A stretch of 64,000 bases of DNA from Sulfolobales archaeon HS-7 (GCA_019704295.1 AP024596.1:1472001-1536000), one strand, 5' to 3'. Shown: positions 1,673-24,376, counted from the stretch's first letter. Made by a program: numbers and translations. The notes: generated by a model not told the origin, from the sequence alone.

Positions 1673-4600
1673 TCAAAAAGGGGAATCCTTTTTCTGTCTA
1701 ACCTCGTCCAGTGTTAATATACCCTTGTCGATCAGAACATTAACGTGATCCCAAGCATGTGACCTAACGTATTCACTCGGTGATTCAAGAAGTGAGAGAA
1801 AATGGTCCTTTTTCTGTCTAACCTCGTCCAGTGTTAATATACCCTTGTCGATCAGAACATTAACGTGATCCCAAGCACGTGACCTAACGTATTCACTCGG
1901 TGATTCAAGAAGTGAGAGAAAATGGTCCTTTTTCTGTCTAACCTCGTCCAGTGTTAATATACCCTTGTCGATCAGAACATTAACGTGATCCCAAGCACGT
2001 GACCTAACGTATTCACTCGGTGATTCAAGAAGTGAGAGAAATGCCTTGGAATCCTCCCTCGTTAATATACCCTTGTCGATCAGAACATTAACAATACTCC
2101 AAGCACGTGACCTAACGTATTCACTCGGTGATTCAAGAAGTGAGAGAAAATGGTCCTTTTTCTGTCTAACCTCGTCCAGTGTTAATATACCCTTGTCGAT
2201 CAGAACATTAACAATACTCCAAACAGTGATGCAAACATACTCGTCAGTTGCGCTCAGCATCCTTAAGATTAGATTATTAAAATGTGATTTGTATGGAGAT
2301 TCACGTACAGATGTAAGCCGTGATTTAAAGTCTGGTTTGTTAATCACGCCAGCAATCGGCCTCATCATGACCTCAAAGGTCTGAATTACATCGGCTTTAT
2401 CAGAATATCTTTCCAAAAGATATGCTATTACTTCCAATATCTTGACCTTAAAATCTTCGTCACTGAAATATGGGACCACGGAAATAGCGTCGAAAAGGAA
2501 AGTCGAAACGTTATTTGGCCTGCTGAAATAACGTTGGTGATTTTTAATATAACTTTCTGAGTCTTTATAAATTTGGAGAATTAACCTCCCGTAACTATTA
2601 CACACTTCTTTTAGCTCTTCCCTAATTCTATTAAGGTATTTATCAAATTCCTCAAAATCAAAGTTCGTTTTTCCCAGCTTCGTTATTAAATTTTCGTGCC
2701 CTAATTCATCCTCTAATTTATCTGGGATTTCCTCGCCGTCTAAATACCCTACCAAAATATTGTATCCTTCCTTCACCGAGCCGTGGATAGGAGATAGTAT
2801 TCCTCGGTGGTCCATTCGGAAAAACGGGAAGAAAGCGTTAACTTCCCCATTCTCCACTCTTACTACTCCTACCGTACCCTCCTGTACCGTGTCCCTTTGT
2901 AAGGAGATTAGGGAATCCAGAGCACGGTAGAGTAGGGAACTTTCCGTATTAAGACCAACTAAGCTCAACCTCTCCTTGTCAACAGCAGCGATCGGTACTC
3001 CTTTGCTTTCCAACATAGCCCCCAGTAGGGCAAGAATTAGGAGGAATTCCTTCTTACCACTTTCTGTTTCTAGGGGAATGTCTCCATTTTTAAAGTAAAA
3101 CTGTTGAATCTTCCTAAAGGCATATGTTTTAGGGTTCCGGTCTATTTCGTCTAGGTCTTCTTCGCTTATGTTCTCCTTTCCCTCTAGAAAGTACCTTAAT
3201 ACTACAGGCAGTCTGGCCCTCTTCACTATTTTTCGCTTCAACTCATCACTGATTTTTATGTTCTCAGATAGCATACTCTCCAGAATCTTCATTAATTCGT
3301 CTTCATTCGTGTTAATGCGGATTTCCTTGAACAGATTCCCCCGCTCCCTCAGTTTTCTCCATAAATCCCCCTTATGCAGATCTGCGAATCCCATCTCAGC
3401 TTTCTCCACAACGGATCTCCACATCGTCTCTTCCGTTGTGATGAGAATCGGACATTCCGCGTTGCCCTCTATAAACGCTTCATGTAGGACATTGGTTAAA
3501 TGTTCCTGCAACATGTTCGTGGTAACTCTACCGTCATCTAAAATTAAAAGGCACTTCCCATCCCTGGAGGGAGGATATTTAAATGTCCTTGGATCTTGGA
3601 TCGAATAAACCACAAATTTTCCTCCAGTTTCTCCTTCCGCTCTCTCCATCAACTTTTTCACGACGAGATAGGAGAACCAGCTCTTTCCCACTCCTGAAGG
3701 ACCTATTACGGCATAAAATAGGGGATTTCCCCTAAAGGTGGAGAGTTCTGATAAAGTATGTTTTCTCCAGCTGAGGATCTCATTGGCCAGTTCATTGACT
3801 TTCTCTTGCTTAATCTCAACTAGAGTTTCTTCGTTTACACCATAATATTCCTTAATTGAGTCCTTATCCTCTGGTTTTAACCCGGCTTGCTTAATTTGTC
3901 CCTCCTTGAGCCTGTTTATTTCCTCTTCATGCTTTTTTATTTCCTCTTCATGCCTGTTTATTATTTCTTCGAGTTTATCTATTCTTTCCTTTATCTTCTT
4001 GACCTCGCTCTCAAGCTCTGGCACTTTCCTTATGACTTCGTTCAGCTTCTTTATGTAATCCTCGGTAAAGATCTGCTTAAGTCTAGACAAAAACTCATCG
4101 TACCCCCCTCCCGGTCCCACAGGGGATAGCCAGCTTGAGAGGAAGCTGTAGCAGTCCCCGGGGTTGAGGCCGTATTTCTCGTCCAGTTTCTCGCACAGGA
4201 TCTCCCTCTTCTCCACCGGATATTCGTTCCAGGCCTTGTGTAGCTTTACGTACTTTCCAAGACCCGCGTCTTTCCTCTCCTCGTAAAAGCTAAGTATTAA
4301 TGACACTCCGAAGAGTATTACTGATGCTGGCAATAAAAATTCCGAGATAAGGCGAGACAGAGTAGGTAACAAAGGCCCCTTAAGGTATTCCAGGGTTTCG
4401 CCTAAAGCTCCCATCCCTTCGGAAAGGCTTAAACCAAAGGTCTCAAGCAGAAGCTCTTCCCTATGTCTCTCAAGTTCTTTCAATTTTTCAAGGATCTCTT
4501 CGCTTTTGCCAGCATGCTCTTCGATTACTCTCTCCAGAAGAGGTGGTATCAACAACCCATTACCCTCTAGCGGGGAGCCACCAAAGCTGGCCAGCTCAAG

Positions 4601-8529: not shown

Positions 8530-10704
8530 TCACCAGAGAATCGCTGTTTCGTTCTTAAGCCTTCTAAACCCCGTGTCCTTATCGTAATACTTTTCCAGGT
8601 CCTCCCTTTTCAGCAAGTACCAACCCAACTCCTCATCCAGTTCCAGGGGAGGTTCATCCCATGCCCTGACCACGTATTGTTCAGCCAACCCCCTCTGCAC
8701 CTTTAGCAAGGCCCTTCTCTGATACCCCCTCTGCTTAAGCACCTCCTTCAGCTCCTTCAGAACTTTCTCCGCCTCCTCATCAACGTTTACGTAAACTGAG
8801 TATTTGGGTTCCTCCTTAATTACCTTTAGCTCCACCTCCCCGTAGTTCAAATCCGTTATCTCCTTCTCTAGGTTCTCCCATTCCTTGGTACGAAAGTCGC
8901 TATACCTTCTCCTAATCTCCTCGTAAAACCTTCCCAAAATTGACGAAATGTCCCTTTCATTGAACCCCTTTTCCCAACCCTTCAGTGTGGACAGAGTTAC
9001 CTCTTCGCTCAGTTTACCGTATATAAGAGAGAAATCGGTGGAATTGACGTTCTCCCTCTTTACCCTAGTTAGGATGACCTCTCCTGTCTCTCCGTAATTC
9101 CTGTTAATCCTTCCAGCCGTTTGTACCACGGCATCAATAGGCCCTAAGTCCCTGTAACCTCTTCTGAAGTCAATGTCCACACCTGCTTCAACCATTTGAG
9201 TTGTCACCAGTATTACCCTTTCCCCCTTCTCAATCTTACTCTTGATGCGCTCTATCCGCCTCCACCTCTCTAAGGGCACTATCCTAGTGGAGAGGAAGTA
9301 AGGTTTCTCTCCCCTGTCTCTGAGGACTTTGAAAACTCTTTCCGCCGATTCAATTGTGTTAAGCTCTATCATAGTCGAAGTTCTCACGTCAATTCCCGCC
9401 GCAAGTTCCTCCGGAGTCTCCACCTGATCGAATTTCCTAAACCTGACAACGTACCTGTCTGGAACGGTCGTAACAGGTCTTTCCGGTTCTACGCTAAGAG
9501 GAGGTGTAGCCGTCATCATGAGGATCTCAACGTTAAGGTGTTTCGTCATTTCCTCCAACCCCTTCTTGATGATACCCAGGTATTCCAGGGGAAGTGCCTG
9601 GACCTCGTCTAGGATTAGGAAAGAGTTTGAGAGGTTGTGTAACCTTTTCAAGTTGGAGTTCTTGGGGGAGAAAAGGGTTGCCAGTAGGGCCTCAAAGGTA
9701 GTGACAATGAAGGGAGAATCCCAGCTCTCCGCCAACATGAGTTGCGACTCTAAGTCCCTTGTCTCATCTGCCCCTTTCTTCTGGGTGAAAGCCAGGTGAT
9801 GGAACTTCATGACGTTCTCCTCACTCAGAATGTCGGATAGAACCCTCCAGTTCTGCTCTATTATGCTAATGAAGGGTAGGGAGTACACTACCCTCCTTCT
9901 CCCTCCCTTCAGAGCCACTAGGGAACCCGCTAATGTCTTCCCGCTACCCGTAGGGGCAACCAGCGTTATGAAGGGAGACTCTTGAACGTAGTTTAAAGCC
10001 CAATTCCTAAGTTCCTCTCTCATTCCTCTAATTTGAGGGTTTGGTGAGGTAAGGCTTCTTATGTGCCTTTCAAGGATTTTGTAATCAGGTAGCGGTAGAC
10101 CTCTCTCCTCCACGTTACCTGCACTGTGTTTATCCGCATCGATCAGTGATGAAAAGATGAGTAGGCCCTCCAGATACTCCTTCCACCCCTTATCCCTAAG
10201 AACAGCATTCGTTACTTTCCTATATCCTTGCCTAAGGAGTTCCTCAAGCGAGGGGAGATCTGCGGGAACCCACTCAACTTCCTCTCTGATAGTAGACCAC
10301 TTGGACTTGATATCCTGATATTGTTTTACTAAACAAGTTTGGGGGTTTCCGATGTTATCCCTGTTATTTCTAAGTACATCGCGGTAATCCCTCAGACCCC
10401 TTAGGTAACCGTGATGGGAGTACACGGAAATCGCTGACAGCACTGAGTATAGGTCGTCCTTCACAGTGTAAAGGGTAATTATTGATGAAAAGAGGGCGTG
10501 ATCTGAACAGTCGACCCTCCTCTGATCAAGCAGGTGCTCCTGAAAAAAGCGGGAGTACTTTCCTATATCGTGAAGTCCGCCTGCCATAAAGGCGAATTCC
10601 GCCAGATCCTCTCTACCCGCATCAGTTATTCTTCTCCTTGCTCCCTCCCCCACTTCCCTCAAGTGTACTCTAATTTCCTTATCAGGATGACTGTAAAACT
10701 TCAC
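8530..10704 (-). CDS. cas3: CRISPR-associated HD nuclease/helicase Cas3
   Basis: LHDIGK, HHG and LIDAD (HD domain); APTGSGKT, ILDEVQ, MTAT and QTAGRINR (SF2 helicase). Confidence 0.96.
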   Translation of the reverse strand: MKFYSHPDKEIRVHLREVGEGARRRITDAGREDLAEFAFMAGGLHDIGKYSRFFQEHLLDQRRVDCSDHALFSSIITLYTVKDDLYSVLSAISVYSHHGYLRGLRDYRDVLRNNRDNIGNPQTCLVKQYQDIKSKWSTIREEVEWVPADLPSLEELLRQGYRKVTNAVLRDKGWKEYLEGLLIFSSLIDADKHSAGNVEERGLPLPDYKILERHIRSLTSPNPQIRGMREELRNWALNYVQESPFITLVAPTGSGKTLAGSLVALKGGRRRVVYSLPFISIIEQNWRVLSDILSEENVMKFHHLAFTQKKGADETRDLESQLMLAESWDSPFIVTTFEALLATLFSPKNSNLKRLHNLSNSFLILDEVQALPLEYLGIIKKGLEEMTKHLNVEILMMTATPPLSVEPERPVTTVPDRYVVRFRKFDQVETPEELAAGIDVRTSTMIELNTIESAERVFKVLRDRGEKPYFLSTRIVPLERWRRIERIKSKIEKGERVILVTTQMVEAGVDIDFRRGYRDLGPIDAVVQTAGRINRNYGETGEVILTRVKRENVNSTDFSLIYGKLSEEVTLSTLKGWEKGFNERDISSILGRFYEEIRRRYSDFRTKEWENLEKEITDLNYGEVELKVIKEEPKYSVYVNVDEEAEKVLKELKEVLKQRGYQRRALLKVQRGLAEQYVVRAWDEPPLELDEELGWYLLKREDLEKYYDKDTGFRRLKNETAILW

Positions 10705-11560
10705 ATAATGAACAGGAAGGGAGAGGAAAAAAACTTTTCGTGAACGCTCGTGGTCAGAAGGTTAAGATCACTTCGTTGCCCCTTAGTTACCTATCTTAAA
10801 TGCGTTTGAGGTATTCCCTCAACTTAAAACCATTCAGCGCGTGGAAGAAAAACGTGGTAAGGCCCTGGTAATGATGAAATTCCCGTTCATGACAAAGGAT
10901 GAGACAAAAACCGATTGGAAATTCATTACAACTGTAGGTTACGCATATTACGTAAAAGCGCTTACTTCGCCTTCCTCAATCTCTCATAATTAGGGTTAAC
11001 GAGTAACAAGGGTACTTTACGAACTTGATCTGACCAGGGTGAAAAATCCATTGCCGCATAGGTGGGTCTACCCAGGGGTTTACTTGTTACATTCCTGACG
11101 TTCGAGAACTGCGGAGTACAGGGCCGCGTAAATTAGCAAAACCTCATGCAGATTTGTTGAGGTAATTGAAGATCCTTGTCCATTTTACTAAACCCATCAG
11201 AATACCTTGAAAAACTAATCACGACTTGCTTAATTAACACTAGGCAAACTAAAGAGTATTTAAATTATCCTAAAATTATGATAGTATATTATCTAACTTC
11301 AATAATAAAAGGAAACCCATAAAGGGCTTTCCGTAATCTTTAAGGGGAAAGTTAAAAATTAACCCTAGAGTTCAGCTCATACCAAGGCCTAATGGTTTAA
11401 CCAGGAAGTACAAAGGAGTTCAATTTCTTGTAACCTTCCGCGTGTTTACTGAGTTAAGATGCTCTCATCTCTTTCAGATTGACGTCTAAGCCTGGTTCTA
11501 GTGTTATTACTCCCTATTGATCTCTTTGAAGACATTACGCGTTAACTGGAATAGTGATCT

Positions 11561-11818
11561 TCATAAAACGTTGGACGGCCCTTTCTCCTCTCCAAGAATT
11601 TCCCTCTTCAGCGTTCTTTTAGATTCCGTTAAGTAAATTATAACTGAATCCCCTTCCCTCATTATTTGACGTAATTCCTCTTTTAGGGAGTAGAGCTTAC
11701 CCTCGGATATTTCCCCTTCAAATACCGACCTTTGAACCCAGGCAAGGTATTTCCTACAGATGTTAAGCGCTTTGTTTACCCGACTTTCATCAAAATCGTA
11801 AACCAGTACTACGTACAC
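11561..11818 (-). CDS. cas2: CRISPR-associated Cas2
   Basis: YVVLVYDFDESRVNK...WVQRSVFEG, 85 aa. Confidence 0.96.
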   Translation of the reverse strand: MYVVLVYDFDESRVNKALNICRKYLAWVQRSVFEGEISEGKLYSLKEELRQIMREGDSVIIYLTESKRTLKREILGEEKGPSNVL

Positions 11819-12007
11819 TATAATTAATATGTAAATTTAATTTATACTGATTTCGCATTTTCCGATAGGTAGGACAATTTACAATTATTTTTGTTATCTT
11901 GGGGTAAATAAGATATTCGTACTGACGTTTTACCCTAGGATGGAGTATGTTCTAAAACATTGAACCAGCTGAGCATGATGTTAGTCCTAATATTTGTATT
12001 AAGGTTG

Positions 12008-12037
12008 GTTTCAAGCCCTCATAGGAAAGCTATAAAC
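12008..12037 (-). CRISPR. Orphan CRISPR repeat, probably the detached trailer repeat of the main array
   Basis: GTTTCAAGCCCTCATAGGAAAGCTATAAAC, 29/30 identical to the A-type array repeat and in the same orientation. Confidence 0.9.
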
Positions 12038-12201
12038 CCGGGCCATAGGCATAAGAGACTAGATAATGTTCCAATAAAATGTAAAAAAACGCTTTGTGTT
12101 GCATATTTAAACTGAAGTAGAACTAACATGTGAAAGAAAAGTAGAATAGAATAATAGCAGAAATCGGTCAGCGTTTCAAAGCATTAACTCCTTAGTTAAC
12201 G

Positions 12202-12426
12202 CTAAATGTTGATTTCCTCAAGCCTCATCATGCTTACGCAGTATAATCTTATCCTTTTCCCATTTGGGGTCCTAAGCCCTCTTCTCGTTATGTGATCCTC
12301 TTTAGCTAGTCTACTTAGTACTACCTTAGCATTGTTTTCATCTATATTTACATCTCTACAAATTTCGTCAAGCGTCTCACAGTTGTTTCGTGCTAAGTAA
12401 AATGGTATAATTCTCCACATGTTCAT
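12202..12426 (-). CDS. plrA: PlrA-like small wHTH plasmid DNA-binding protein
   Basis: CETLDEICRDVNIDENNAKVVLSRLAKEDHITRR...RIRLYCV. Likely start MNMWR at 12426. Upstream direct repeat GTAGGATTACAAA at 12444 and 12508. Confidence 0.7.
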   Translation of the reverse strand: MNMWRIIPFYLARNNCETLDEICRDVNIDENNAKVVLSRLAKEDHITRRGLRTPNGKRIRLYCVSMMRLEEINI

Positions 12427-12650
12427 ATCATAATTTAGGCTAGGTAGGATTACAAAAATGTTACCCTTCATGGAGACGTGGAAAACCGCTTTCCCAAACC
12501 CTTTTTAGTAGGATTACAAATTTGTAACACTCTCACTATTAACGCAAGAGTCTGCCCAAACGAGAGAAAAATCAGGGATCCGGGCAGGATTAATTATCTA
12601 TCTTCTAGCGATTATACTGGAGATCATAAAATTTTCTAAAAGATGAAATT

Positions 12651-13724
12651 TTACTCTGAAACTTCAACGACTCTCCTTCTTAGAAGTGTCTCAGCTACTT
12701 TATCAGTTATTATTTTAATTAAATCTTCAACACGTGACTTATCTACTATAAATTTCTTGTTCTGCTCATCAAATTCTACTTTTAACTCCCTTTGAGTTTT
12801 ATTTTCATATTCATTCTTTACTTTTTCTATAATCTTAGGGTCGGTATTTAGATTTTGTTCGATTTCGGTTATGCCATTTTTTACAACTTTGTTTAGATTC
12901 CTTAATTGTAATGGGTCTACCTCTCTCAAACCTCTTTCGAATGCATCCGCGTTATCAACAATATTTATTACCTTTTTAAAGTTTGGCTCCTTCTTCAAGT
13001 TATTTATATAATAATCAACAAGCATTTTCTTAAAATTACTATCCTTTTGAAACTTCGATAGCGTAAAAATGATTATCTTACCTTTATAATATGTGAACAG
13101 AATATTCTTTTCTAGAATTATATAATCCTTAATATTTACTGCTTCGTAGGTGTCTTTAGACTTAAAAAAGTGTAAAATGCTAAGGTTTTTTAAAATAATA
13201 TTTCTATCAAATTTACTAAATATTAATATGTCATCCCCGCCTTCATCACTAAGTTTGAATGCTACATATTTAGTATTCTTCGTGTCGTTCTCCGGGCTAA
13301 ACTTTTCGTCAGTAGGAGGGTTCGCATTCTTGATCATTTGAATTAATTTCATAATATCACTCTCAGTATTATAGGATCCACTCTGTTGAGAAGTATTTGC
13401 TTGAATTTGAGAAGCAGCTTGAATTTGGGGGTCAGAAGATAAAATATCGAGATCTATATAGCATGGTTTTTTAGACTCAAAGTCAGCACATTCATTAATA
13501 ATATTCTCTTTTTCTAGTTTTGTAGATATTTTTTCTCTTATGTAAATAAAATTATTCCTACTTCCTCTCTCAATATTTATATACTTAGCTTCATATGTTA
13601 CACCTTTATCACTTACTCCTCCTTTAGTTCTTACAAAGAAGTATATTTCCTTGAGTTTATCTTCTAAATCAATTTTATTAGTAGCCTCGACTAAATCTTT
13701 TCCAGAGTAGCCCTCTTTGTTCAT
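12651..13724 (-). CDS. kwaB: Kiwa anti-phage system protein KwaB-like (DUF4868-like)
   Basis: 357 aa, soluble, with ILIFSKFDRNIILK...DTYE...LEKNILFTYYKGKIIIF and a C-terminal EDLIKIITDKVAETLL resembling KwaB. Starts 7 nt after the KwaA-like gene. Confidence 0.7.
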   Translation of the reverse strand: MNKEGYSGKDLVEATNKIDLEDKLKEIYFFVRTKGGVSDKGVTYEAKYINIERGSRNNFIYIREKISTKLEKENIINECADFESKKPCYIDLDILSSDPQIQAASQIQANTSQQSGSYNTESDIMKLIQMIKNANPPTDEKFSPENDTKNTKYVAFKLSDEGGDDILIFSKFDRNIILKNLSILHFFKSKDTYEAVNIKDYIILEKNILFTYYKGKIIIFTLSKFQKDSNFKKMLVDYYINNLKKEPNFKKVINIVDNADAFERGLREVDPLQLRNLNKVVKNGITEIEQNLNTDPKIIEKVKNEYENKTQRELKVEFDEQNKKFIVDKSRVEDLIKIITDKVAETLLRRRVVEVSE

Positions 13725-13731
13725 TAACCTC

Positions 13732-14319
13732 TTATTCTTTATACTTTTTGTCTAAATAAATATTCTGATATAGGCGGAAAACTTCAACTATTTTACCCTC
13801 CTGTACCATCCCCTCATATATAATATAGACCGATCTGTTATGCTCCTGTACCTTCACCTTGTAAACTCTATAACCACTTATGAAAAGAATAGGGTTAAAG
13901 AGGAGCACTTCGCTGTTCTTGAATAATTCATATATAAAAACCATAATTAAGAAAAAGACTACTAGTCCATATATGTTGGCTTGGAATGTAGATATTAGCC
14001 CAAGTACGTAACTCATTATGACATTAGTATAGTTAATACTTAAGTCTTCTACCTCGGTAATGGTATATTTGAAAGATTCATCATTTCTGTTAGAGCTCAA
14101 GAACTTAAAGTAAAGATAGTTAGAAACAACTAACCATAAAATCACTATTAAGTAGATTATTAGAATTAGAATCCATGGAATTTGTAAGCTAAAGTTTTCT
14201 ATTGTAAATCTAAGCGAAGATGTTAGAATATACCTAAAATAATTTATCATAACTGCTATAAATAGTAATGTATACTCGCTTGTAAATAGTGCCAATGAAT
14301 TTAAATCAACCCTAGTCAT
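13732..14319 (-). CDS. kwaA: Kiwa anti-phage system membrane protein KwaA-like
   Basis: 195 aa with about 4 TM segments. ITEVEDLSINYTNVIMSYVLGLIS and LLFNPILFISGYRVYKV match the KwaA-type NP-x5-G(Y/F)(R/K)xY signature. Confidence 0.75.
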   Translation of the reverse strand: MTRVDLNSLALFTSEYTLLFIAVMINYFRYILTSSLRFTIENFSLQIPWILILIIYLIVILWLVVSNYLYFKFLSSNRNDESFKYTITEVEDLSINYTNVIMSYVLGLISTFQANIYGLVVFFLIMVFIYELFKNSEVLLFNPILFISGYRVYKVKVQEHNRSVYIIYEGMVQEGKIVEVFRLYQNIYLDKKYKE

Positions 14320-14464
14320 GGTGCTAATTACTCTCTGATCATATAGAGTAATAAACTAGTTTTAGTTGTGAATTTTCTCGCCACTAAATTGTGGGAGTTA
14401 ACAGAATTTATTTCACGTATCATTTTTGACGACTAGACATATCTACTCTGTTAGTTCAATTTTC

Positions 14465-14755
14465 CTAAATTAGATGAGAAAAATAGTAAGTCCCCACTAG
14501 TACGATAATGTCAATAACTAGAAGATATACTGTAATCATGGATAGTGCAAAAAGTCTTGTATCCCAATCCGTGTATTCGTCACTTACAATATCGTCAGGA
14601 AGTACTATAGATATTCCGGAAATATCTAGAATTATAATAAATTCCATTGGGTTCATTATTTCATCTCAGTGGGCAAGAGCATTTCGTATTACCAGTAACG
14701 TGTTGAAAATCTGTAATTCCTCTACTGTAGGCAAAATCTTTATAGGCAGCTTATA
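14465..14755 (-). pseudogene. Truncated HEPN-like gene remnant
   Basis: In frame upstream of ORF 14465..14656 the sequence reads LQIFNTLLVIRNALAH*DEIMNP, an Rx4H motif followed by an in-frame TGA. Confidence 0.45.
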
Positions 14756-15593
14756 GTTTCCGTCTCTTTCATTATCTTTATGACCCTATTCTCCAGGTCT
14801 ATTTGATTCATCTTAAGCGAGAATACTTCTCCTACCCTGAGCCCACTCTACGCCAATAATAGGAAGACAGGCTTAGTCCCTAAATGGTCTATGCTATCGA
14901 ATATCTCCCTTAAAGTCTCTAGAGAAAGCGGCTGCGGTGTTGTATCTGTACTTTGACTTAGGCACTTTGAAGGAATTATGAAGTAATTGAGCTAAGTGTA
15001 AGTTCTTTTCTCTTATAATAGTCTTAATAAATAACTTTAGGGAATAGCAGCATGCCTAGCTATATTGTTGCTTTCTTCAACCTAGTTCAGCTAATAGGTC
15101 CCGGAACCTGTCAGGGTTCAATTCATATCCTAGCCTTGTAACTCTAAGCCTTAAATACCTCATCCTCATAGCCATCGTACTCTTACTCTTGCCCTGGAGT
15201 GATTTTTCGAACTTGTTTACATCATCTTCAGTAACAATATACGTAGAAGATACATTCTTCAGATAACCTCCTAAACATTGATAGAGAATTGAGACAAAGA
15301 AATTACGGAACTTTTCGTCTTTCATCGCTTTTATAACCACTGACAAGGCAGTCGTAACGTCTACTTCCACTAATTTCAACCCGTAAATAGCATCTGAAAG
15401 TTTATCTGGTGCCGGCATATCTGCAGCCTTTCTTACTACCTCCAAAGGATATTCTGGTCCGTGTTCACGTACCTGAATAGAGTACTCCTACCTACTCCTG
15501 ACTGCTTTGAAGCTTTTGCTAGCCTAGTTCTTCTTCTACTTTCTTTAGTATCCTCCTCCGTTTCTCATCTAATTTTGATACGTCAATTAGCAT
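14754..15593 (-). pseudogene. int: pNOB8-type tyrosine integrase pseudogene (stops, frameshifts, C-terminal third deleted)
   Basis: Fragments MLIDVSKLDEKRRRILKK, GVGRSTLFRYVNTD, LSDAIYGLKLVEVDVTTALSVVIKAMKDEKFRNFFVSILYQ and SGLRVGEVFSLKMNQIDLENRVIKIMKETET. Confidence 0.9.
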
Positions 15594-15703
15594 ATTTCTC
15601 TATCCTACTTATAAGAAAGTGACGCTTTTCCAAAAATAAGGTTTTGTGTTTTACTTACGCCTTTATAAAGAGAACGCGACGTACTTTCAATTTCAGGGAG
15701 AAT

Positions 15704-15747
15704 TGGTGCCGCGGCCGGGATTTGAACCCGGGTCACAGACTTGAGAG
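15704..15747 (-). other. att site: 3' half of tRNA-Glu(CTC), not a complete tRNA
   Basis: Minus strand reads CTCTCAAGtCtGTGACCCGGGTTCAAATCCCGGCCGCGGCACCA (anticodon loop, T-arm, acceptor 3' strand, CCA). The 5' half is absent, and it lies 110 nt upstream of int. Confidence 0.85.
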
Positions 15748-15765
15748 AGCTTATTCGTTTTCTGA

Positions 15766-17386
15766 GTTTCAAGCCCTCTTAGGAAAGCTACAAACTGCAA
15801 ATATAGCGAAGTTTGTGGAGTCTGGAAAAATCCTCATAGGAAAGCTACAAACCAGGGGCGTGACCGTTGAACTCCGTAGACTGCGTGTTGTTTCAAGCCC
15901 TCATAGGAAAGCTACAAACGAGCCGAAAAGTATGATCTTCTTTATGGTCTCATTCTGTTTCAAGCCCTCATAGGAAAGCTACAAACAAATAAAGGAGATA
16001 GTCTGTTATGGTTAAAGTCCTAACTGGTTTCAAGCACTCATAGGAAAGCTACAAACGGTTCTATCTTGAACAATTAAGCTATATTCACACTGTTTCAAGC
16101 ACTCATAGGAAAGCTACAAACGGTTCTATCTTGAACAATTAAGCTATATTCACACTGTTTCAAGCCCTCATAGGAAAGCTACAACTAGCCCTTCTTTTGC
16201 CATTTCGCTTAAGTCTTTTTCGTTTCAAGCCCTCATAGGAAAGCTACAAACTTAGCAGGAGTATACGTTGGACATATGGTAGGATGGTGTTTCAAGCCCT
16301 CATAGGAAAGCTACAAACTCGTGCCAAAAGATCTAGAAGTTTTTCTGAATTTGGTTTCAAGCCCTCTTAGGAAAGCTACAAACAATGTAATGCATGTAAT
16401 TACACGACATATGATTATCTAGTTTCAAGCCCTCTTAGGAAAGCTACAAACCTCTAAAGAGTTGGAGGAATAGCGTAATGTGTCCTGTTGGTTTTAAGCC
16501 CTCTTAGGAAAGCTACAAACGTCCAATGCGTACAAGGGACAGGAACCGGCGGCATAGTTTCAAGCCCTCTTAGGAAAGCTACAAACATTTTACGTTTTTT
16601 TCACAAAATGATAGATTAATTGGTTTCAAGCCCTCATAGGAAAGCTACAAACATGTACACTATTGCTCTCGATTACTTAATACAGGAGACGTTTCAAGCC
16701 CTCATAGGAAAGCTACAAACATATGAAAGTGCTATATGTCGGATATCTATTTTTTTGTTTCAAGCCCTCTTAGGAAAGCTACAAACTTTTTGAAATTGTG
16801 GAGAAGGGCGATATTGATATACGTTTCAAGCCCTCTTAGGAAAGCTACAAACCAAATTCTTGTGAAACAGGCAAAAATATCGGTGGAATGTTTCAAGCCC
16901 TCTTAGGAAAGCTACAAACACAACTAATCTTCCACCGCTCTATGTGGAGGACGCTGGTTTCAAGCCCTCTTAGGAAAGCTACAAACACATAGGTGTGATC
17001 ATGCCGTTGCCCGGTCTTGCTAGTTTCAAGCCCTCTTAGGAAAGCTACAAACACATAGGGTGTTACGATCTTTCTGTTTTTGAAGCTGGTTTCAAGCCCT
17101 CTTAGGAAAGCTACAAACTCTTAGAAGCACAGCAGAAGATGTACCAGGAGTACTGTTTCAAGCCCTCTTAGGAAAGCTACAAACTCGGAAGCATAACGCT
17201 ATAGTAACTCTGCCATTCTTCGTTTCAAGCCCTCTTAGGAAAGCTACAAACTCGGTAATTAATATCGGTCCAGTGTCTTTCAGCGTTTTAGTTTCAAGCC
17301 CTCTTAGGAAAGCTACAAACTGATACTAAGGATAAACTAATGATTCAAATTCATAAGTTTCAAGCCCTCTTAGGAAAGCTACAAAC
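15766..17386 (-). CRISPR. CRISPR array: 25 repeats (30 bp, GTTTCAAGCCCTC(T/A)TAGGAAAGCTACAAAC on plus) and 24 spacers of 35-40 nt
   Basis: Counted directly. On minus the repeat ends TTGAAAC. Degenerate repeats cluster at the left end, so the leader is on the right next to cas4. Confidence 0.98.
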
Positions 17387-17680
17387 ACTCATTGTTTTGT
17401 CCTTTCTCATTCATAAATTTTTCGGTATCAAATTCGGCAATCTCGCTCTCCCTAGAGGTTACGTGAGGTTGCCGTCGATAATTTACGTCTAAAAATATAT
17501 GTTCTGTTATACATATTTTGGTATTACGTGGGGTTGCCGAATTCTTGTATGAGATAAAAAATGAATAAAAAGCTAAACAGAATAAATACCTCCGAACAGA
17601 TTTATTACTCTCCTAAGGTAACGTCCAATCCAACTACACTAAGTCAGACCTTAAGGGTTAAGCGAAAATTTCTCATGAGT
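17387..17680 (-). promoter_or_regulatory. CRISPR leader
   Basis: AT-rich non-coding region adjoining the conserved end of the array. Contains TTACGTG(A/G)GGTTGCCG twice (17459, 17524) and an inverted CGGCAATCTC (17435). Right boundary approximate. Confidence 0.7.
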
Positions 17681-17896: not shown

Positions 17897-18403
17897 ATGG
17901 ATATATACCTAGCGCCTGACGTTCCTGTCACAGGTACGCTGATATGGTACCTTCACGTCTGTCCTAGGGAGGTGTGGTTTATGTCGAGGGGGATAACCCC
18001 TTATGCCTACCATAGGAGGTTGGAATATGGTAGAGCCGTACACCAGCGGCATTCTGACACAGTACCCCTATCTCTTGAGGGAATCAAGATCGATAAGTTC
18101 GATAGGGAGAGCAACGTGGTCATAGAGATCAAGTCGATGTCCAGGCATCTGGAGTCGGCTAGAGCCCAGTTGAGCTATTACTTATTCCGCCTAAGCGAAC
18201 TGGGATTGAAGGCTAAAGGTCAAGTCTGGGTACCAGATGAATCGTTAACTGAGGAAATCGACAACTTTAATGAAGATGAGGTGAGGAATGACGTGGAGAA
18301 AGTTAAGGAGATAGTTTCGATGGAAACTCCTCCCCAGCGAAAGTGGATAAAGTTCTGCAAGAAGTGTGCCTACAGGGGTTTGTGCTGGGGTGATGAAAGG
18401 TAA
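17897..18403 (+). CDS. cas4: CRISPR-associated exonuclease Cas4
   Basis: CPREVWF, KID, VIEIK, QLSYYL, and C-terminal CKKCAYRGLC Fe-S ligands. Confidence 0.95.
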   Translation: MDIYLAPDVPVTGTLIWYLHVCPREVWFMSRGITPYAYHRRLEYGRAVHQRHSDTVPLSLEGIKIDKFDRESNVVIEIKSMSRHLESARAQLSYYLFRLSELGLKAKGQVWVPDESLTEEIDNFNEDEVRNDVEKVKEIVSMETPPQRKWIKFCKKCAYRGLCWGDER

Positions 18404-18461
18404 TGGGCTTTAACCTCAAATCTCCACGCTCCAAGGGCGAGACCCTTTGCCTGAACCTGCA

Positions 18462-19397
18462 ATGAAGAGGATTTACATAACGTCGCACGGCACGTTAAAG
18501 CGTAAGTCCAATACCCTGGCCTTCATAACGAAGGAGGGCACGAAGTTCATCCCGATAACTCAGGTTAGGTCAATTTACGCTTTCGGGGAGATCACCGTCA
18601 ATAAGAGAGTTCTCCATTTTCTGAGCAAGTACGGTGTCCCCATCCACTTCTTCTCTAAGAGGTACATAGGTAGCTTCCTACCTAAAAGCACTAATTTGTC
18701 GGGATTCGTACTGATCAAGCAGGTTCAAGCTTACCTCTCCGAAAAGAGGGTGAGGCTTGCCAGGTCTTTCGTGGAGGGTTCGATCAAGAACATGGCTCTA
18801 ATCCTAAGGGAGAACGGGGTGGACAACAGCGGGGTAAGGGGTTTTCTAAACAGGTTAGAAAAGGCCGAGAACGTAAACGAGGTAATGGGAATTGAGGGTT
18901 TGGCAAGGGAGGAGTACTACTCCAAATTGGATAAGGTGTTAGGGGGTTTGCTGGTCAAGAGGACCAGGAGACCTCCGGAGAACTGGGTCAACTCCATAAT
19001 GAGTTTGGGAAATACCATACTTTACATGGAGACACTGGATCAGATTATCCAAACTCAGTTAGATCCGAGGATTGGTTTCCTTCACTCCACTAACCTGAGA
19101 AAGCACAGTCTTAACCTGGACATAGCTGACGTGTTCAAGCCACTTATCGTTGACAGGCTTGTAATTTCCATGGTTAACAGGAAGGAGATTAGGAAGGAAG
19201 ACTTTGAGGCTGAGGGGATTAGGCTTAAGAGGGACGGACTAAGGAAGTTCGTGGCTAAATTCGATGAAAAGCTTGAGACGAGAGTGAAGGTGGGAAGGAG
19301 GAGGTTGTCCTACTCAACCCTGCTTAGGTATGAGGCTTACAAGGTGGAGAGGGACGTGATAGGGGACGCGGTTTACGTTCCGTATACAGCAAGGTAA
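18462..19397 (+). CDS. cas1: CRISPR-associated Cas1, subtype I-B
   Basis: MKRIYITSHGTLKRKSNT, MGIEG, RTRRPPENWVNS, GFLH, LNLDIADVFKP. ATG at 18462 preferred over TTG at 18447. Confidence 0.96.
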   Translation: MKRIYITSHGTLKRKSNTLAFITKEGTKFIPITQVRSIYAFGEITVNKRVLHFLSKYGVPIHFFSKRYIGSFLPKSTNLSGFVLIKQVQAYLSEKRVRLARSFVEGSIKNMALILRENGVDNSGVRGFLNRLEKAENVNEVMGIEGLAREEYYSKLDKVLGGLLVKRTRRPPENWVNSIMSLGNTILYMETLDQIIQTQLDPRIGFLHSTNLRKHSLNLDIADVFKPLIVDRLVISMVNRKEIRKEDFEAEGIRLKRDGLRKFVAKFDEKLETRVKVGRRRLSYSTLLRYEAYKVERDVIGDAVYVPYTAR

Positions 19398-19767
19398 TCC
19401 GGTGCATTAAGACTGCGGGTAGAAAGGTGTTGCTAGGTTTACGTACAGTAGATAGAAAGGTAATCCGGTCGGGATATTCATTTAGAGTGTGAAGCTATTC
19501 GAAACGAATTACTTGATCCCACGAATAAACTCTAAAGATCAACGCCCTTAACGCTCCTACATCCCTATCAGGGGATAACGCTTTTTGGTCTTTAAGTTAG
19601 CTGATTTAAGCGAAAACTTCCAACATATGTGAAACTCTTAAATACCCAAACTTAAGAAGACCTTACCATAATCCCTTCACTTCACTGAAGGATCATACAA
19701 AGATTTAGCAGTATGTGCCGTATCTTTTACTAGGTAAAATCGAGACCCCCATCTTTTTAAATTCAGG

Positions 19768-21516
19768 ATGCAATTTTCGATGATGTTTTCATCTCTTTTA
19801 GAACTTGGGAAAAATCGGGAGGTAACTCAGGAGGTAAAACTTCCAATAAAGAAATTGAAGAACACTAAAGGAGATCTCTGTTTCGTAATCTTCGATAACG
19901 ATAATAAACAGGTTAGGGTGGAGAGATATCGACTGTATAAAGGGGCAGAGGATGACCTTGCCTACATCGGTAATGCAGGACCTCAAAAGGATCAGGTGGA
20001 ATTAACCTCTAACAATATGAAATACGTGATCGGATTTGATAGGAAGGACAAGACTTCTCCTTCAGAAAAGTACTTAAAGAAGAAGTTCGCAATTCAGGTA
20101 GTTGCTGATAAATTGAGGGGAACGGAATTAGGTGAGATCTTAGGAAGGGTTCTAAACTGGTACAAACCAGACCCAATTAAGTATGCAGAGCTTAAACAGT
20201 ACAAAGATTGCGCACTATACTCAGTTAAGGTTATGGATCAAGGGAGGGAATTAACTGTTGCTAAAGATCCTAAGTACAGGGAATTATTATCAAAGGTGGG
20301 AGATACTGTTGATGGAGTGTGCCAGTTGTGCGGTTCACAAGGCGTACTCAAAAACCCGAATTATACTGACGGTTCAATTCTGAAAATCTTCATAACGGAT
20401 AAAAAGGGTTTCCTGCCGAATCATTCTAAAGATAACGTAATTCTCGCTCATGCGATCTGTCCTTCGTGCAAAAGGAGTCTTGAGTTAGGATGTAACTTTG
20501 TCCAGCAGGATCTGGTGGCGACTCTCGGTAAGCTTAACGCCTACATTATACCAGATTTGCCTAAGGAGGGACTCACACAATTCTTAGACCTTTACAAACC
20601 AAGTAAGGAGGGCTTCCTGCTAAAACATCTAGAAGACGTCAGAAAAGCGGAGAGGGATGTACAGGAGACTGCTGAATCCCTTGGAGTTGAGCCTAGGCTA
20701 ACTATAGTTTTCGGGAAAAGGGATAGAGCCAAATTCAGGGTATGGAGGGTAATCCCAGAGGTAAACTATATGAGACTTATCGAAGTGGTAAAGGCATTTG
20801 GCAAGGCCGCTGCCATTATGCAAGTTAAAGAGAATCCCTCATTCAATGATCTCTATTCCATTTTACCGGTAAGGGAAACCAGGAATGGCGTTGATCCCAG
20901 GTATTTTCTGGACTTCATGGAATCCCTCATTCAGGACTATCCCCTAGATCCCGGCCTGGTCTATAGAGTCTTCCTTGAGTCGATAAGGTGTAAGAGATAC
21001 AATACCTGTGAGAACAGCAAAACCAAAAAACATAGTTTAAGGAATATCGTGTTACTTCAGGAAACGTTTATATACTCAATGAAAATATTGGGTATTATGG
21101 GAGAGGAAATTGACAAGCAGGAGGAAGTAAATAAGGACAGAACTCCACAAGGAGTTGCAGATTCACTGGGTCTAAGGGGAGGGAAAAAAGGTCTATACTT
21201 ACTAGGATACCTCACAGCACAGGTAGGAAAGGAACAGGCGAAGAAGGGAGATGAGAAGAAAGCGATATTAGACAAGATAGACTTCGAGGGAATGGATTAC
21301 GATGATGTAATAACTTTCGCTAATAGACTAGTGGAGTCCCTGAGGGACTACAAAGTTTTCCACTACAATGAGGGAGTGCTGGGGGAAGCAATGAGGTTGA
21401 TCGCTGAGGACAGGAATTCCCTAGCGAATCCTCAGGAGAATGTCTTTCTGATCCTGTTAGGATACTCCTACAGTACGAAGCAGATATTCGAGAACAGTAA
21501 ACAAGTAGTTTCCTGA
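19768..21516 (+). CDS. cas8b: Type I-B large subunit Cas8b (Csh1/TM1802-like)
   Basis: CQLCG...FITDKKGF...AICPSC zinc motif, C-terminal GLYLLGYL...Q and FLILLGYSY; upstream of cas7. Confidence 0.88.
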   Translation: MQFSMMFSSLLELGKNREVTQEVKLPIKKLKNTKGDLCFVIFDNDNKQVRVERYRLYKGAEDDLAYIGNAGPQKDQVELTSNNMKYVIGFDRKDKTSPSEKYLKKKFAIQVVADKLRGTELGEILGRVLNWYKPDPIKYAELKQYKDCALYSVKVMDQGRELTVAKDPKYRELLSKVGDTVDGVCQLCGSQGVLKNPNYTDGSILKIFITDKKGFLPNHSKDNVILAHAICPSCKRSLELGCNFVQQDLVATLGKLNAYIIPDLPKEGLTQFLDLYKPSKEGFLLKHLEDVRKAERDVQETAESLGVEPRLTIVFGKRDRAKFRVWRVIPEVNYMRLIEVVKAFGKAAAIMQVKENPSFNDLYSILPVRETRNGVDPRYFLDFMESLIQDYPLDPGLVYRVFLESIRCKRYNTCENSKTKKHSLRNIVLLQETFIYSMKILGIMGEEIDKQEEVNKDRTPQGVADSLGLRGGKKGLYLLGYLTAQVGKEQAKKGDEKKAILDKIDFEGMDYDDVITFANRLVESLRDYKVFHYNEGVLGEAMRLIAEDRNSLANPQENVFLILLGYSYSTKQIFENSKQVVS

Positions 21517-22014
21517 ATTGAACATTAAAAGGTAGGGCTTTTATTTGAAATAACCTTCTTCAAGGTCATCAATTAACATTGCACGATATAATCGTGATAG
21601 GAATAAAGTCTTGGCGTTTAGAGTCGAGGAGGTGGGTAATACTCAATAACTTAATCAGTAAAATTCGTAAAGGGATTTTGTCCCAATCCCCCCGTACCTT
21701 CTGAGCAATGAAATGTATTCATTCCTAAAGGCTCATGACGTTGTAGTTTTTATTGTTATAAAGATAAAGGGGTTTGAATTCACCCATCCATACTATCTTG
21801 AAATGGGTATACCTATTAACTGGTATGCTGAAAATACGCGGAACTCCCGGGAACTTGAGTAATGGAAGACGTGAAGGCCTATTCACAACTCAGTGAATTG
21901 CCTCACTCAGTTACATGCAAAAAACTCTAGTTCTCATACCGCATTAACTAAGGAATTTTCCTAGAGATCTAGGTCTCGTAAAGCTTTATATAGTTTTAGA
22001 TATTATCATAGTGT

Positions 22015-22950
22015 ATGAGTACAAATTCTCCTTCTAAAAACTCCGAAATATTGCTTATTTACGAGGTCAAAATGGCGAACCCGAACGGAGATCCCGACGA
22101 TGAGAATAGACCAAGAATGGATCCGAAAACGAAGACAAACATAGTTACAGACGTGAGGATAAAAAGGTTTTTCAGGGATCTCATCATAGAGAGGGAGGGA
22201 GAGAACGCGATATGGGTGTCTAAAGTTGATGGGAAAATCGTAAACGCTACTAATAAAATAGAGAAATTCCAAACTTATGAAGATATGCTAAAGTCGTGCA
22301 TTGACGCTAGGCTCTTTGGTGCTACTATACCTAAAATGGGACGTAAAAAGGGTGAAGGGAAAGAGAAGGGCGAGTCCATATCGTTTACAGGTCCTCTACA
22401 ACTGACCTGGGGTTACTCGTTGCACAAGGTAGACTTAATGGATACCAGGAGTATAACATCTACATTCTCTTCTGGAAGGAAGGAGGGTTCTGAACGGGAG
22501 GAAGATGAGGAAACAACAGGTAAAGAGTACGGAACAATAGGTAAGGATTACAGGGTGTACTACTCCCTTATAGCGTTTTACGGGGCTTTCAGCTATAGGA
22601 GAGCCTTGAAGACCAACGCGACTAAGGAGGATTTAAGGAAATTCGAAAACTTACTTTGGGATGCTATACTCTCACAATCGGTTACCAGGAGCAAGATAGG
22701 TCATTACCCCCACATCTACATGAGAGTTGAGTGGAACGAACAGGACAAATTCGAGGGAGACCTGAGGAGGTACATAAAGGTTAAGGAGAAAAAGGACGCC
22801 GTAAGATCCCTAGAGGACCTGGAGCTGGACTTCTCTCAACTAATCGCAAAGGTTAGCGGAGCAACGGTATACGGAAGGTGTTCACAGGAGATGAACTTCG
22901 TCTGCGACAAGCTAAAGCAAGTGGCAAAGTTCATCTCAATTCCGTATTAG
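22015..22950 (+). CDS. cas7: Type I-B Cas7 (Csh2)
   Basis: ANPNGDPDDENRPRMD, VTDVRIKR, DARLFGA, FTGPLQ. Confidence 0.95.
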   Translation: MSTNSPSKNSEILLIYEVKMANPNGDPDDENRPRMDPKTKTNIVTDVRIKRFFRDLIIEREGENAIWVSKVDGKIVNATNKIEKFQTYEDMLKSCIDARLFGATIPKMGRKKGEGKEKGESISFTGPLQLTWGYSLHKVDLMDTRSITSTFSSGRKEGSEREEDEETTGKEYGTIGKDYRVYYSLIAFYGAFSYRRALKTNATKEDLRKFENLLWDAILSQSVTRSKIGHYPHIYMRVEWNEQDKFEGDLRRYIKVKEKKDAVRSLEDLELDFSQLIAKVSGATVYGRCSQEMNFVCDKLKQVAKFISIPY

Positions 22951-22958
22951 GTGTTAAC

Positions 22959-23657
22959 GTGAAGGTATTAAGAGCAGTAATTAAGGGTAAGATGGCTCAC
23001 TTTAGAAAGGTTTACAGTAACTCCACCTCCTTGTCTTATTACTTTCCACCTAGAACGACAGTCCTAGGAATTATCGCAGCCGCGCTGGGAAAGGAAAGGG
23101 ACAGCTACTACTCGGAGTTTAATGTCTACAATGTAGGGGTTGCGACCTTAACTCCTCTGAGGAAGTTAGTTACAGCAGAGGACATTCTAGACACGGATGA
23201 ACTTAACACAACCAAGTTTAGAGGATTTAGTAATAGAGTTCCCACGACCAAGGAAATCGTGATAGCGTCAAGGGGCGATTTCCTAAGTTACGAGATTTTC
23301 ATAAATCCCCTTAATCAAGAATTGGAAAAGAGTATGAGGGAGCCTGTCTACCCCCTATCCCTGGGCCCCGCTAACATGTTGGCCTGGGTTGATGAGGTTG
23401 AGGAGGTGGACTGTGACGAGTTGCCGTCAGGAAGCGCAGAGGTGGTAGGGGCTGTTCCGGCGGAGGTAAAGGTCAAGTTCTCCTCCAAAGTTCAGATTTC
23501 CTTAGAGGACACCGTACCCCGTGATTTCTCATCGGGGAGAGTTCCCGGAAGGGCAAGGAACTACTACTTTTCCGTAAACGGTTCGCCTTACGAAATAGAG
23601 TACAATTCTCCCTTGAATGGCGTAATGTGTAATGGGCGTGGAGTAGTATTCCTTTAA
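22959..23657 (+). CDS. cas5: Type I-B Cas5
   Basis: GKMAHFRKVYSNSTSLSYYFPPRTTVLGIIAAALG, YPLSLG. GTG start 9 nt after the cas7 stop. Confidence 0.93.
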   Translation: MKVLRAVIKGKMAHFRKVYSNSTSLSYYFPPRTTVLGIIAAALGKERDSYYSEFNVYNVGVATLTPLRKLVTAEDILDTDELNTTKFRGFSNRVPTTKEIVIASRGDFLSYEIFINPLNQELEKSMREPVYPLSLGPANMLAWVDEVEEVDCDELPSGSAEVVGAVPAEVKVKFSSKVQISLEDTVPRDFSSGRVPGRARNYYFSVNGSPYEIEYNSPLNGVMCNGRGVVFL

Positions 23658-24376
23658 GGTTTTGCATTAAACTGAGGAGTATATCAGGAGAAATACCCGT
23701 ACACTACAACTACTTCATAGAGTCGATGATCTATCGCCACCTCCCTCCGAAGACCAGGAAATCCCTACATGAGAACGGTGTCAGGCAGGGTCCAAGGAAA
23801 TTCAAGCTTTTCACGTTCTCCAGACTTTACGGGGACTTCGTCAGAAGAGACAATTCCCTGATCTTCAGGGACTTCGCTTACCTGTGCATATCCTCTGTAC
23901 TAACGAGGGAAATGAGGCTTCTCATAAACAGTCTGTCAAAGGAGTCGTCAATAAGAATTGGAAAGTGCGTTCTTAATGTGGACAGCATGAGGGTTCTTGA
24001 GTTTCCCGACAACGAGGAACGGGAGTTTTACACGTTATCGCCTATAGTAGTGACGAAGAGGACTAACGAGACCAAGTACTTATTACCCTTTGATGACGAA
24101 TACAACATGAGGTTATCCCTGAACCTAAAGAGAAAGGTTAAGGCAGTTACAGGAAGGGAACCAATGTCAGAGATCAAGTTCAGATTCCTAAAATGGAGGA
24201 GGGTGATCACCCTTTACAAGGGAAACCCCGTTATTGGAGTTATGGGAAAGTTTAAACTCTACTCAACTAAAACTGAATTGAAGGTCGGATATTTCGCGGG
24301 TCTCGGTGTGAAGAACAGTCAGGGATTCGGAATGTTCGAATTTGAAGGGATTAGCGTAAGGGATTTACTGGGATAA
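23654..24376 (+). CDS. cas6: CRISPR endoribonuclease Cas6; the expected start codon reads TTA and the first ATG is at 23726
   Basis: FKLFTFS, TLSPIVV, G-loop GLGVKNSQGFG. In-frame upstream LRFCIKLRSISGEIPVHYNYFIES is the typical Cas6 N-terminus. Confidence 0.9.
   Translation, partial: LRFCIKLRSISGEIPVHYNYFIESMIYRHLPPKTRKSLHENGVRQGPRKFKLFTFSRLYGDFVRRDNSLIFRDFAYLCISSVLTREMRLLINSLSKESSIRIGKCVLNVDSMRVLEFPDNEEREFYTLSPIVVTKRTNETKYLLPFDDEYNMRLSLNLKRKVKAVTGREPMSEIKFRFLKWRRVITLYKGNPVIGVMGKFKLYSTKTELKVGYFAGLGVKNSQGFGMFEFEGISVRDLLG

Follow-up and report, generated by a model that had tools for sequence, protein, structure and literature searches.

How can several thousand base pairs of plasmid DNA come to occupy the place of a single spacer in an archaeal CRISPR array? 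The question is raised by a 64,000-nt stretch of the genome of Sulfolobales archaeon HS-7, an inhabitant of hot springs (GCA_019704295.1 AP024596.1:1472001-1536000; the window, with positions counted from its first letter). Two 30-nt CRISPR repeats on the same strand, R1 (12008-12037) and R2 (15766-15795), bracket 3728 bp of this window (12038-15765) that contain DNA of the pNOB8 family of conjugative plasmids. The arrangement had been proposed in a first-pass annotation of the window, and a repeat search together with plasmid homology bears it out: the chance expectation for a 30-nt repeat in the window is no match, each of the two repeats departs from the array consensus at one position, and they differ from each other at two. 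The answer developed here is that an old spacer, itself copied from the attachment site (attP) of a pNOB8-like plasmid, was probably the recombination target through which a plasmid entered the array.

A plasmid opened at its attachment core

Two blocks of the bracketed DNA, 14750-15747 and 12035-12197, align with pNOB8-family conjugative plasmids, with 74-77% identity at the DNA level. The plasmids matched are pKEF9, pAH1, pARN3, pHVE14, pYN01, pMGB1 and pSOG1; pNOB8 itself is matched more weakly. Pairwise BLAST against pKEF9 and pAH1 places the first block at pKEF9 locus 3001-4002, which comprises the 5' part of the integrase gene (int) and attP, and the second at pKEF9 locus 3980-4146, which is plasmid sequence beyond attP; an additional small block aligns upstream of the regulator gene plrA. 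Calling the insert pNOB8-like DNA is therefore correct for these two blocks but not for its centre (12651-14319), which is not backbone shared with the sequenced plasmids and holds a gene for a KwaA-like protein and that gene's partner.

An attachment (att) core of about 20 nt is present at both ends of the insert, at 12038-12057 and 15728-15747. At the right end it forms part of a 44-nt piece that resembles the 3' half of a transfer RNA (tRNA) for Glu with anticodon CTC and consists of the anticodon loop, the 3' strand of the anticodon stem, the variable loop, the T arm, the acceptor strand and CCA. As the annotation had it, this piece lies 18 nt from the start of R2, and int follows it on the same (minus) strand, from 15593 down to about 14755. 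The left core aligns to pKEF9 locus 3980-4002, the same plasmid segment that aligns to window 15725-15747 (repeat family D4, 19/24).

Once the circle is closed, the layout of the insert is colinear with pKEF9 and pAH1: core, int, P' arm and plrA-like gene, the last of these at the position that plrA takes in both plasmids. The plasmid circle is opened exactly at the att core, with the int arm at the right junction and the P' (plrA) arm at the left, as in attL and attR. The attP described in the annotation as apparently unrecombined is, on this evidence, nothing of the kind: the plasmid is permuted at its core, and the two arms of attP stand at opposite ends of the insert.

What is left of the plasmid is little. 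The int pseudogene covers residues 1-281 of the 420 of the pKEF9 integrase (74% identity over residues 51-219 by tblastn). Its frame shifts at least three times and meets several stops, and the catalytic C-terminal part is missing. The open reading frames (ORFs) of the 3.7-kb remnant are the truncated int, a 63-aa ORF, the kwaA-like gene, its partner and the plrA-like gene; the conjugation and replication backbone is gone. The insert is an old, decayed remnant of an integrative conjugative plasmid of the pNOB8 family.

The oldest slot of the array

The polarity of the array is set by its leader. All four arrays of the genome that have this repeat share one flank, on the same side of the repeat (94.6-98.5% identity over 196-205 bp), and their opposite flanks are unrelated to each other. 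With this leader at 17387-17584, the array is read on the minus strand, R1 is its terminal and oldest repeat, and the insert occupies the oldest spacer slot. No further repeat was found in a search to the left of R1; degenerate and duplicated repeat units sit at this same low-coordinate end of the array.

The position bears on the most literal explanation, a giant spacer generated by aberrant Cas1-Cas2 integration of a prespacer that was 3.7 kb long or originally of plasmid length. The insert is bounded exactly by two repeats, as a spacer should be, and cas1, cas2 and cas4 are all present, but it lies at the trailer end, with 24 repeats separating it from the leader, rather than at the leader-proximal repeat. 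Moreover, the plasmid is broken exactly at its att core, the repeats that flank it are non-identical, and its two ends are homologous copies of a single plasmid region with tails from different subfamilies (see below), quite unlike the ends of a captured linear fragment. Capture by Cas1-Cas2 is accordingly extremely improbable as the source of the insert.

An ordinary integrant in the same genome

What integration of a pNOB8-family plasmid ordinarily produces can be read from the same genome. The element designated E2 (G000:C1:2064625-2094198) is a complete member of the family, integrated in the ordinary way into tRNA-Glu(CTC). The host's intact, intron-bearing tRNA-Glu(CTC) gene (G000 2094110-2094198; Rfam tRNA, 57.5 bits), which the annotation had expected to be found elsewhere in the genome, is followed directly by an intact integrase gene (65% identity of the product to pKEF9 Int over residues 3-416). 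The far end of E2, about 29.5 kb off, carries plrA, the P' arm and a partial tRNA copy. E2 thus bears out the premise that normal integration leaves a complete tRNA beside int; ARAGORN finds no whole tRNA in the window, which agrees with the absence of one beside int that the annotation had noticed. The order of parts in the insert is identical with that in E2, save that the tRNA 5' half is replaced by 18 nt and a CRISPR repeat (the 18 nt beyond the right core contain no tRNA 5' half) and that the distal copy of the core ends after 20 nt at R1. The spacers of the host's four arrays include no targeting match to E2.

Might a tRNA-Glu gene once have stood beside the array, have received the plasmid in the ordinary way, and then have lost its 5' half and flanks by deletion? 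Elements of this family normally use tRNA genes, and copies in a degenerate state are frequent (PMC4390879, section 2.2; E2 in this genome). This history nevertheless calls for two deletions, each ending exactly at a repeat border, and offers no reason for the left core to stop after 20 nt at R1. The host has an intact tRNA-Glu(CTC) at another place in the genome, with E2 integrated there, and the 17 nt next to R2 resemble a P' arm of pNOB8 type rather than a tRNA 5' half. Integration followed by deletion is highly unlikely.

Junction tails of two plasmid lineages

The 17 nt beside each copy of the core were compared with the corresponding sequence in E2, in 8 plasmids and in 5 copies integrated in other genomes, 14 family members in all, with 20000 shuffles as a control (mean best score of the shuffled tails, 9.3). 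The right tail (15749-15765), which is flush with R2, agrees with four pNOB8-subfamily members at 13-14 of 17 positions, ungapped and in register; a score of 14/17 is reached by 28 of the 20000 shuffles. Against the nine members of pKEF9/pAH1 type it scores 7-9/17, which is the level of the shuffles. The left tail (12059-12075) behaves in the opposite way, with 13-14/17 to the nine pKEF9/pAH1-type elements (14/17 being reached by 2 of 20000 shuffles) and 8-10/17 to the pNOB8 type. Between themselves the tails agree at 5 of 17 positions. The segment between core and R2 (15748-15765), which had been singled out for comparison with the plasmid sequence flanking attP, consequently does resemble such a flank, but that of the pNOB8 type and not that of the pKEF9/pAH1 type to which the integrated plasmid belongs.

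The significance of this difference lies in the topology of integration. When a circle enters a chromosome by a single exchange, the DNA that touches R1 and R2 is host DNA. Since both arms of the insert, the one with int and the P' arm, are of pKEF9/pAH1 type, the right tail is foreign to the integrated plasmid. It appears, from its similarity to pNOB8-subfamily members, to be a short piece of another plasmid lineage that was in the array before the event, joined to an att core and bounded by repeats.

A repeat-bounded piece of plasmid DNA in an array would most simply be a spacer. With the insert taken out, R1 and R2 stand 38 nt apart, which falls within the 34-40 nt range of spacers in this genome (n=144) and is the length of 21 of these 144. 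The simplest description of core part plus tail is a spacer that would have come from the boundary between attP and the P' arm of a pNOB8-like plasmid. At the PAM (protospacer adjacent motif) position of the putative protospacer, TTC is found in all four of the pNOB8-type elements. In the orientation defined by the leader, the flanks of six other protospacers read TTA, TTA, TCT, TCA, GCA and CGT, that is, T-pyrimidine in four of six.

Other spacers in the host's arrays have imperfect matches to pNOB8-family plasmids, among them the six protospacer matches just cited, which carry 3-8 mismatches. Two spacers in different arrays and on opposite strands (16187-16221 in the present array; 1457143-1457182 of the genome), with 8 and 15 mismatches to pNOB8 itself, correspond to overlapping parts of the pNOB8 gene that adjoins attP. 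When the spacers of the four arrays were compared with the genome outside the arrays, no self-targeting match beyond 15-19 nt was found.

Two resemblances were examined and set aside. A spacer of another array that looks like the left junction proved on inspection to do so by chance. A 20-mer of the tail occurs in two near-identical IMG/VR contigs (L072 6544-6563; L073 1265-1284), but in a coding context, next to no tRNA-like sequence and in a match that does not extend, and is likewise attributed to chance.

How the plasmid would have entered

The array would formerly have ended with R2, a 38-nt spacer and the terminal repeat R1. We infer that the spacer was acquired from a plasmid of the pNOB8 subfamily, X, and comprised ~17 nt of the P' arm of X and the first 20-22 nt of its tRNA-Glu-derived att core. 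A plasmid of the pKEF9/pAH1 subfamily, Y, which would have had the same tRNA-derived core and another P' arm, would then have entered the cell. One reciprocal exchange between Y and the spacer, inside the shared core and in place of a tRNA gene, would have set the whole circle between R1 and R2, with the int arm of Y joined to the spacer tail at R2 and the P' arm of Y, along with a partial core, joined to R1. The spacer would have been lost as a CRISPR RNA (crRNA) unit, the next repeat now being 3.7 kb off. Thereafter, most of Y would have been deleted and int would have decayed, while the att-proximal kwaA-like gene, its partner and plrA would have been left intact.

On this scheme the exchange must have taken place within the ~20-23 nt that the plasmid core has in common with the spacer and the opening bases of the repeat. 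The repeat contributes in a small way: taken with the AAC that ends R1, the left core has an 8-bp identity, AACCCGGG, with the right copy. These three nucleotides of R1, which lengthen the identity with attP, are also what can be said for an exchange from repeat to repeat, either through a repeat borne by the plasmid (pNOB8 and pKEF9 are known to have small arrays) or through an attP that mimics the repeat, as in PhiAP1.1; phages of Streptococcus pyogenes with repeat-like attP do integrate into repeats (bioRxiv 10.1101/2020.10.09.333658). Both flanking repeats here are complete, however, so the exchange lay outside the repeat, to which the identity owes only the AAC. Repeat-to-repeat recombination would predict neither the duplication of the att core nor a foreign tail. 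None of the 8 plasmids or integrated copies examined has a repeat beside attP or contains the orphan repeat R1, whose being native to the plasmid was a possibility entertained at the outset, and no CRISPR repeat lies within about 1.5 kb at 30 att/int loci from 47 genomes of the family. The repeat route is very unlikely. The annotation's broader suspicion of an aberrant entry is thereby narrowed: of the routes that it listed, recombination by way of a spacer is supported, and Cas1-Cas2 capture (because of the trailer-end position and of a duplication whose tails come from two subfamilies) and recombination by way of a repeat are not.

Several observations weigh against the spacer-target reading. 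The tail evidence amounts to 17 nt in all. The PAM data are thin, coming from six protospacer matches with 3-8 mismatches, and the fit is to a T-pyrimidine PAM. Between the two copies of the core, 5 of 20 positions are different, and no known tRNA-Glu(CTC) is identical to either of them: each copy has 2-3 differences, at different sites, from tRNA-Glu(CTC) of the host and of the nearest genus. The right copy differs from the host's own tRNA-Glu(CTC) at 3 nt, and its 44-mer has no exact copy in 47 Sulfolobaceae genomes, the nearest being 2 mismatches away. These differences make the point of crossover unrecoverable and oblige one to assume later decay; the simplest view is that both copies were canonical at the time of the event and have decayed since, as int has. 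The spacer is a reconstruction: the ancestral spacer was found uninterrupted in no strain or contig (the genome collection compared has one genome per species and no other member of the genus), no metagenome contig has the 26-mer formed by tail plus repeat, no exact plasmid source of the tail was found, and no public sequencing runs are listed for window 9500-12037. Finally, this is one old event in one genome.

What catalyzed the exchange?

The recombining enzyme could have been supplied by Y, whose pNOB8-type integrase would have used the spacer as a pseudo-attB, or by the host, whose homologous recombination machinery would have acted on the ~20-23 nt of identity between Y and the same att-derived spacer, with the integrase uninvolved. 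The case for the host is readily made. A tRNA-derived core is the sole stretch likely to be identical between two diverged plasmids; a spacer mismatching Y in its PAM-proximal part would have spared Y and still have offered it homology; and recombination between spacers and phage genomes is on record in bacteria (Discussion of bioRxiv 10.1101/2020.10.09.333658, citing Varble 2019 and Watson 2018). Against it, the exchange fell in the att core, the one place at which the integrase acts and a site that makes up well below 1% of a plasmid of 25-40 kb. The other spacers with matches to pNOB8-family plasmids in the arrays of this genome sit in ordinary repeat-spacer units, and across all of its arrays the present insert is the only gap between repeats that exceeds 400 bp. 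Some 20 nt is also short for homologous recombination. No one of these points is decisive, and exchange by the host is best described as possible rather than probable.

We lean only slightly to the integrase of Y, because no enzyme of the pNOB8 type has been characterized at the biochemical level (PMC8371274, Table 1). A 38-nt site may or may not suffice for such an enzyme, and this counts against the spacer-target reading. A more general proposition is tentative, plausible but short of likely: a spacer acquired from an att site would recreate a working landing pad (a pseudo-attB of at most 38 nt), at which relatives of the original plasmid that escape interference by their differing arm might integrate with their own integrase, knock out the spacer and deposit their cargo, for instance a Kiwa-like defence pair.

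Relation to known insertions in CRISPR loci

No description was found of an att-copying spacer that later served as an integration target. A bacterial parallel is provided by the PhiAP1.1-like prophages of Streptococcus pyogenes, which sit in the repeats of type II-A CRISPR arrays (Nozawa 2011; Varble et al., bioRxiv 10.1101/2020.10.09.333658). There, too, an integrase-bearing element lies inside an array, bounded by repeats, and cuts off part of the array from crRNA production, and the identity involved is short (8 bp in PhiAP1.1). The attB of PhiAP1.1 is the repeat itself, however; any repeat can be used, and the insertion is an evolved strategy of a phage family. In the present case both repeats are whole and the proposed target is the one spacer that would have copied an att site; the host is an archaeon, the array is of type I-B, and the element is a conjugative plasmid of which a dead remnant survives. 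Phage genomes are also reported to recombine with the spacers that target them (Varble 2019; Watson 2018, both cited in bioRxiv 10.1101/2020.10.09.333658, Discussion), so that there, too, a spacer and its match on a mobile element become partners. As summarized in that Discussion, these cases concern bacteria, phage recombinases and transduction, with matches that are not att sites and with no stable natural integrated element described.

Closer to home, an 899-bp pNOB8-like fragment lies between two repeats of CRISPR locus F of Sulfolobus solfataricus, with no mechanism given (review PMC4390879, section 4.5, citing reference 37). Like the insert described here, it is pNOB8-family DNA placed exactly between two repeats of a Sulfolobales array. 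A counterpart was located as a 901-bp insert in an S. solfataricus-type array (G018:C1:1394018-1394918; L071 319-1219). It encodes a 150-aa protein that is 62% identical to the product of pNOB8 40116-40484, a position distant from attP. PLSDB contains no DNA-level match to the insert, and int, an att core and any visible junction duplication are absent from it. An att-spacer route is not shown for locus F, which is a parallel in outcome only.

Canonical integration by pNOB8-type (class II, lambda-like) integrases takes place at tRNA genes (PMC8371274). The insert shares with it the integrase family, the layout of attP (with a tRNA 3' half some 110 nt upstream of int, and plrA on the far side of the P' arm) and the placement of the two arms at opposite ends, and differs from it in that the target is no tRNA gene, no functional tRNA is rebuilt, and ~20 of the 44 core nt are present at the P' junction. 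An element integrated into csa3 beside the adaptation cassette of S. islandicus M.16.4 (PMC4390879, section 7.2) also disables part of a CRISPR-Cas locus of the Sulfolobales, but what it entered is a cas-linked regulator gene that has an att site of its own, rather than a spacer.

Spacers are usually viewed as defence guides only. This locus suggests that a spacer may double as a recombination substrate that admits a mobile element into the array, and the case is a pointed one because the spacer would copy an att site, the very sequence that an integrase is built to recognize. With such a liability, CRISPR memory would carry a cost of a new kind, and archaeal arrays could be disrupted by a new route, which complements the repeat-targeting prophages of streptococci. 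Were the integrase landing-pad proposition true, it would map the strand-exchange region of pNOB8-type integrases to the part of the core that runs from the anticodon arm to the T stem, and could account for other oversized "spacers" in archaeal arrays.

A KwaA-like gene and its partner as plasmid cargo

The remnant is of separate interest for what it has kept. A stretch of 28% G+C DNA between the truncated int and plrA carries two intact genes. The first encodes a KwaA-like membrane protein, whose homologues carry PF28043 KwaA; the second, 8 nt downstream and in the position of kwaB, encodes a 357-aa protein that has no match in Pfam, PHROG, PADLOC (hence none to KwaB/DUF4868) or the sequences of the PDB, and none in the ESM Atlas. 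Three near-full-length relatives of the 357-aa protein are the only ones found (a profile search of 1.84 billion representatives gives 2 hits); they make up a small family of its own, whose members in every case stand behind kwaA. Its AlphaFold model (predicted local distance difference test, pLDDT, 37) is too poor for comparison of folds.

In S. tokodaii str. 7, kwaA, a homologue of the partner (57% identity) and plrA follow one another in the same order, and beyond them come a P' arm and part of a tRNA 3' half; the pair there is at the att-proximal end of an integrated element. The pair alone is found on two metagenome contigs; a second listed location of the kwaA-like pair is L074 5406-7508. 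The kwaA-like gene and its partner are att-proximal cargo of pNOB8-family plasmids. They are probably a Kiwa-like defence pair whose second member is no recognizable KwaB, possibly an archaeal variant of Kiwa that is carried by conjugative plasmids. That the pair is intact beside a dead integrase gene suggests that the host has kept it. The surviving cargo, a KwaA-like protein together with a partner for which relatives were detected in only a few Sulfolobales sequences, is a lead of its own on defence carried by conjugative plasmids in archaea.

The array and cas genes around the insert

Coordinates of the insert, of its parts and of the surrounding CRISPR-Cas genes are collected in Table 1.

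Table 1. Features of the window that are discussed in the text
Feature	Position	Strand	Basis and remarks
cas3 (HD + helicase), trailer side of array	8530..10704	-	Pfam Cas3-like_C_2, DEAD, Cas3_HD
cas2	11561..11818	-	Pfam CRISPR_Cas2, E 2e-20; 189 bp from orphan repeat R1
R1, orphan trailer-most repeat, host side of left junction	12008..12037	-	1 mismatch to consensus; functional strand minus
Left att core copy, 20 nt	12038..12057	-	Alignment; anticodon loop to 5' strand of T stem; abuts R1
P' arm of integrated plasmid, pKEF9/pAH1 type	12058..12201	-	74-76% to pKEF9, pAH1 and own-genome E2 over 160-210 nt
plrA-like plasmid regulator, 89 aa, intact	12202..12471	-	Pfam Sulfolobus_pRN, E 1.6e-4, above curated cut-off
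357-aa orphan protein in KwaB position, intact	12651..13724	-	8 nt downstream of kwaA-like gene
KwaA-like membrane protein, 195 aa, intact	13732..14319	-	11 PADLOC KwaA models, best E 4e-11, full length; phrog_7312, E 3e-15
pNOB8-type integrase pseudogene	14755..15593	-	tblastn with pKEF9 integrase
Right att core copy, 44-nt tRNA-Glu(CTC)-like 3' half	15704..15747	-	110 nt upstream of int start
Putative ancestral 38-nt spacer: core part + 18-nt tail (15748-15765) of pNOB8-subfamily type	15728..15765	-	Tail identity, spacer length
CRISPR array	15766..17386	-	24 full repeats + degenerate repeat 15823-15852; transcribed right to left
Leader, conserved part	17387..17584	-	Common to all four arrays of genome
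cas4, cas1, cas8b (TM1802), cas7, cas5, cas6	17897..24376	+	Pfam; type I-B module divergent from leader

The degenerate repeat near the trailer has lost similarity to the consensus in its first 9 nt. At 16027-16186, two neighbouring repeat-spacer units are exact duplicates, with one spacer present twice and the same C-to-A change in both repeats. Along the array, A and T variants of repeat position 14 are interleaved, which suggests internal rearrangements. The type I-B genes have a split layout, with cas2 and cas3 on the far side of the trailer, in the same orientation as the array transcript and now separated from the array by the 3.7-kb insert. The interval between cas3 and cas2 (10762-11560, about 800 bp) is without a long ORF.

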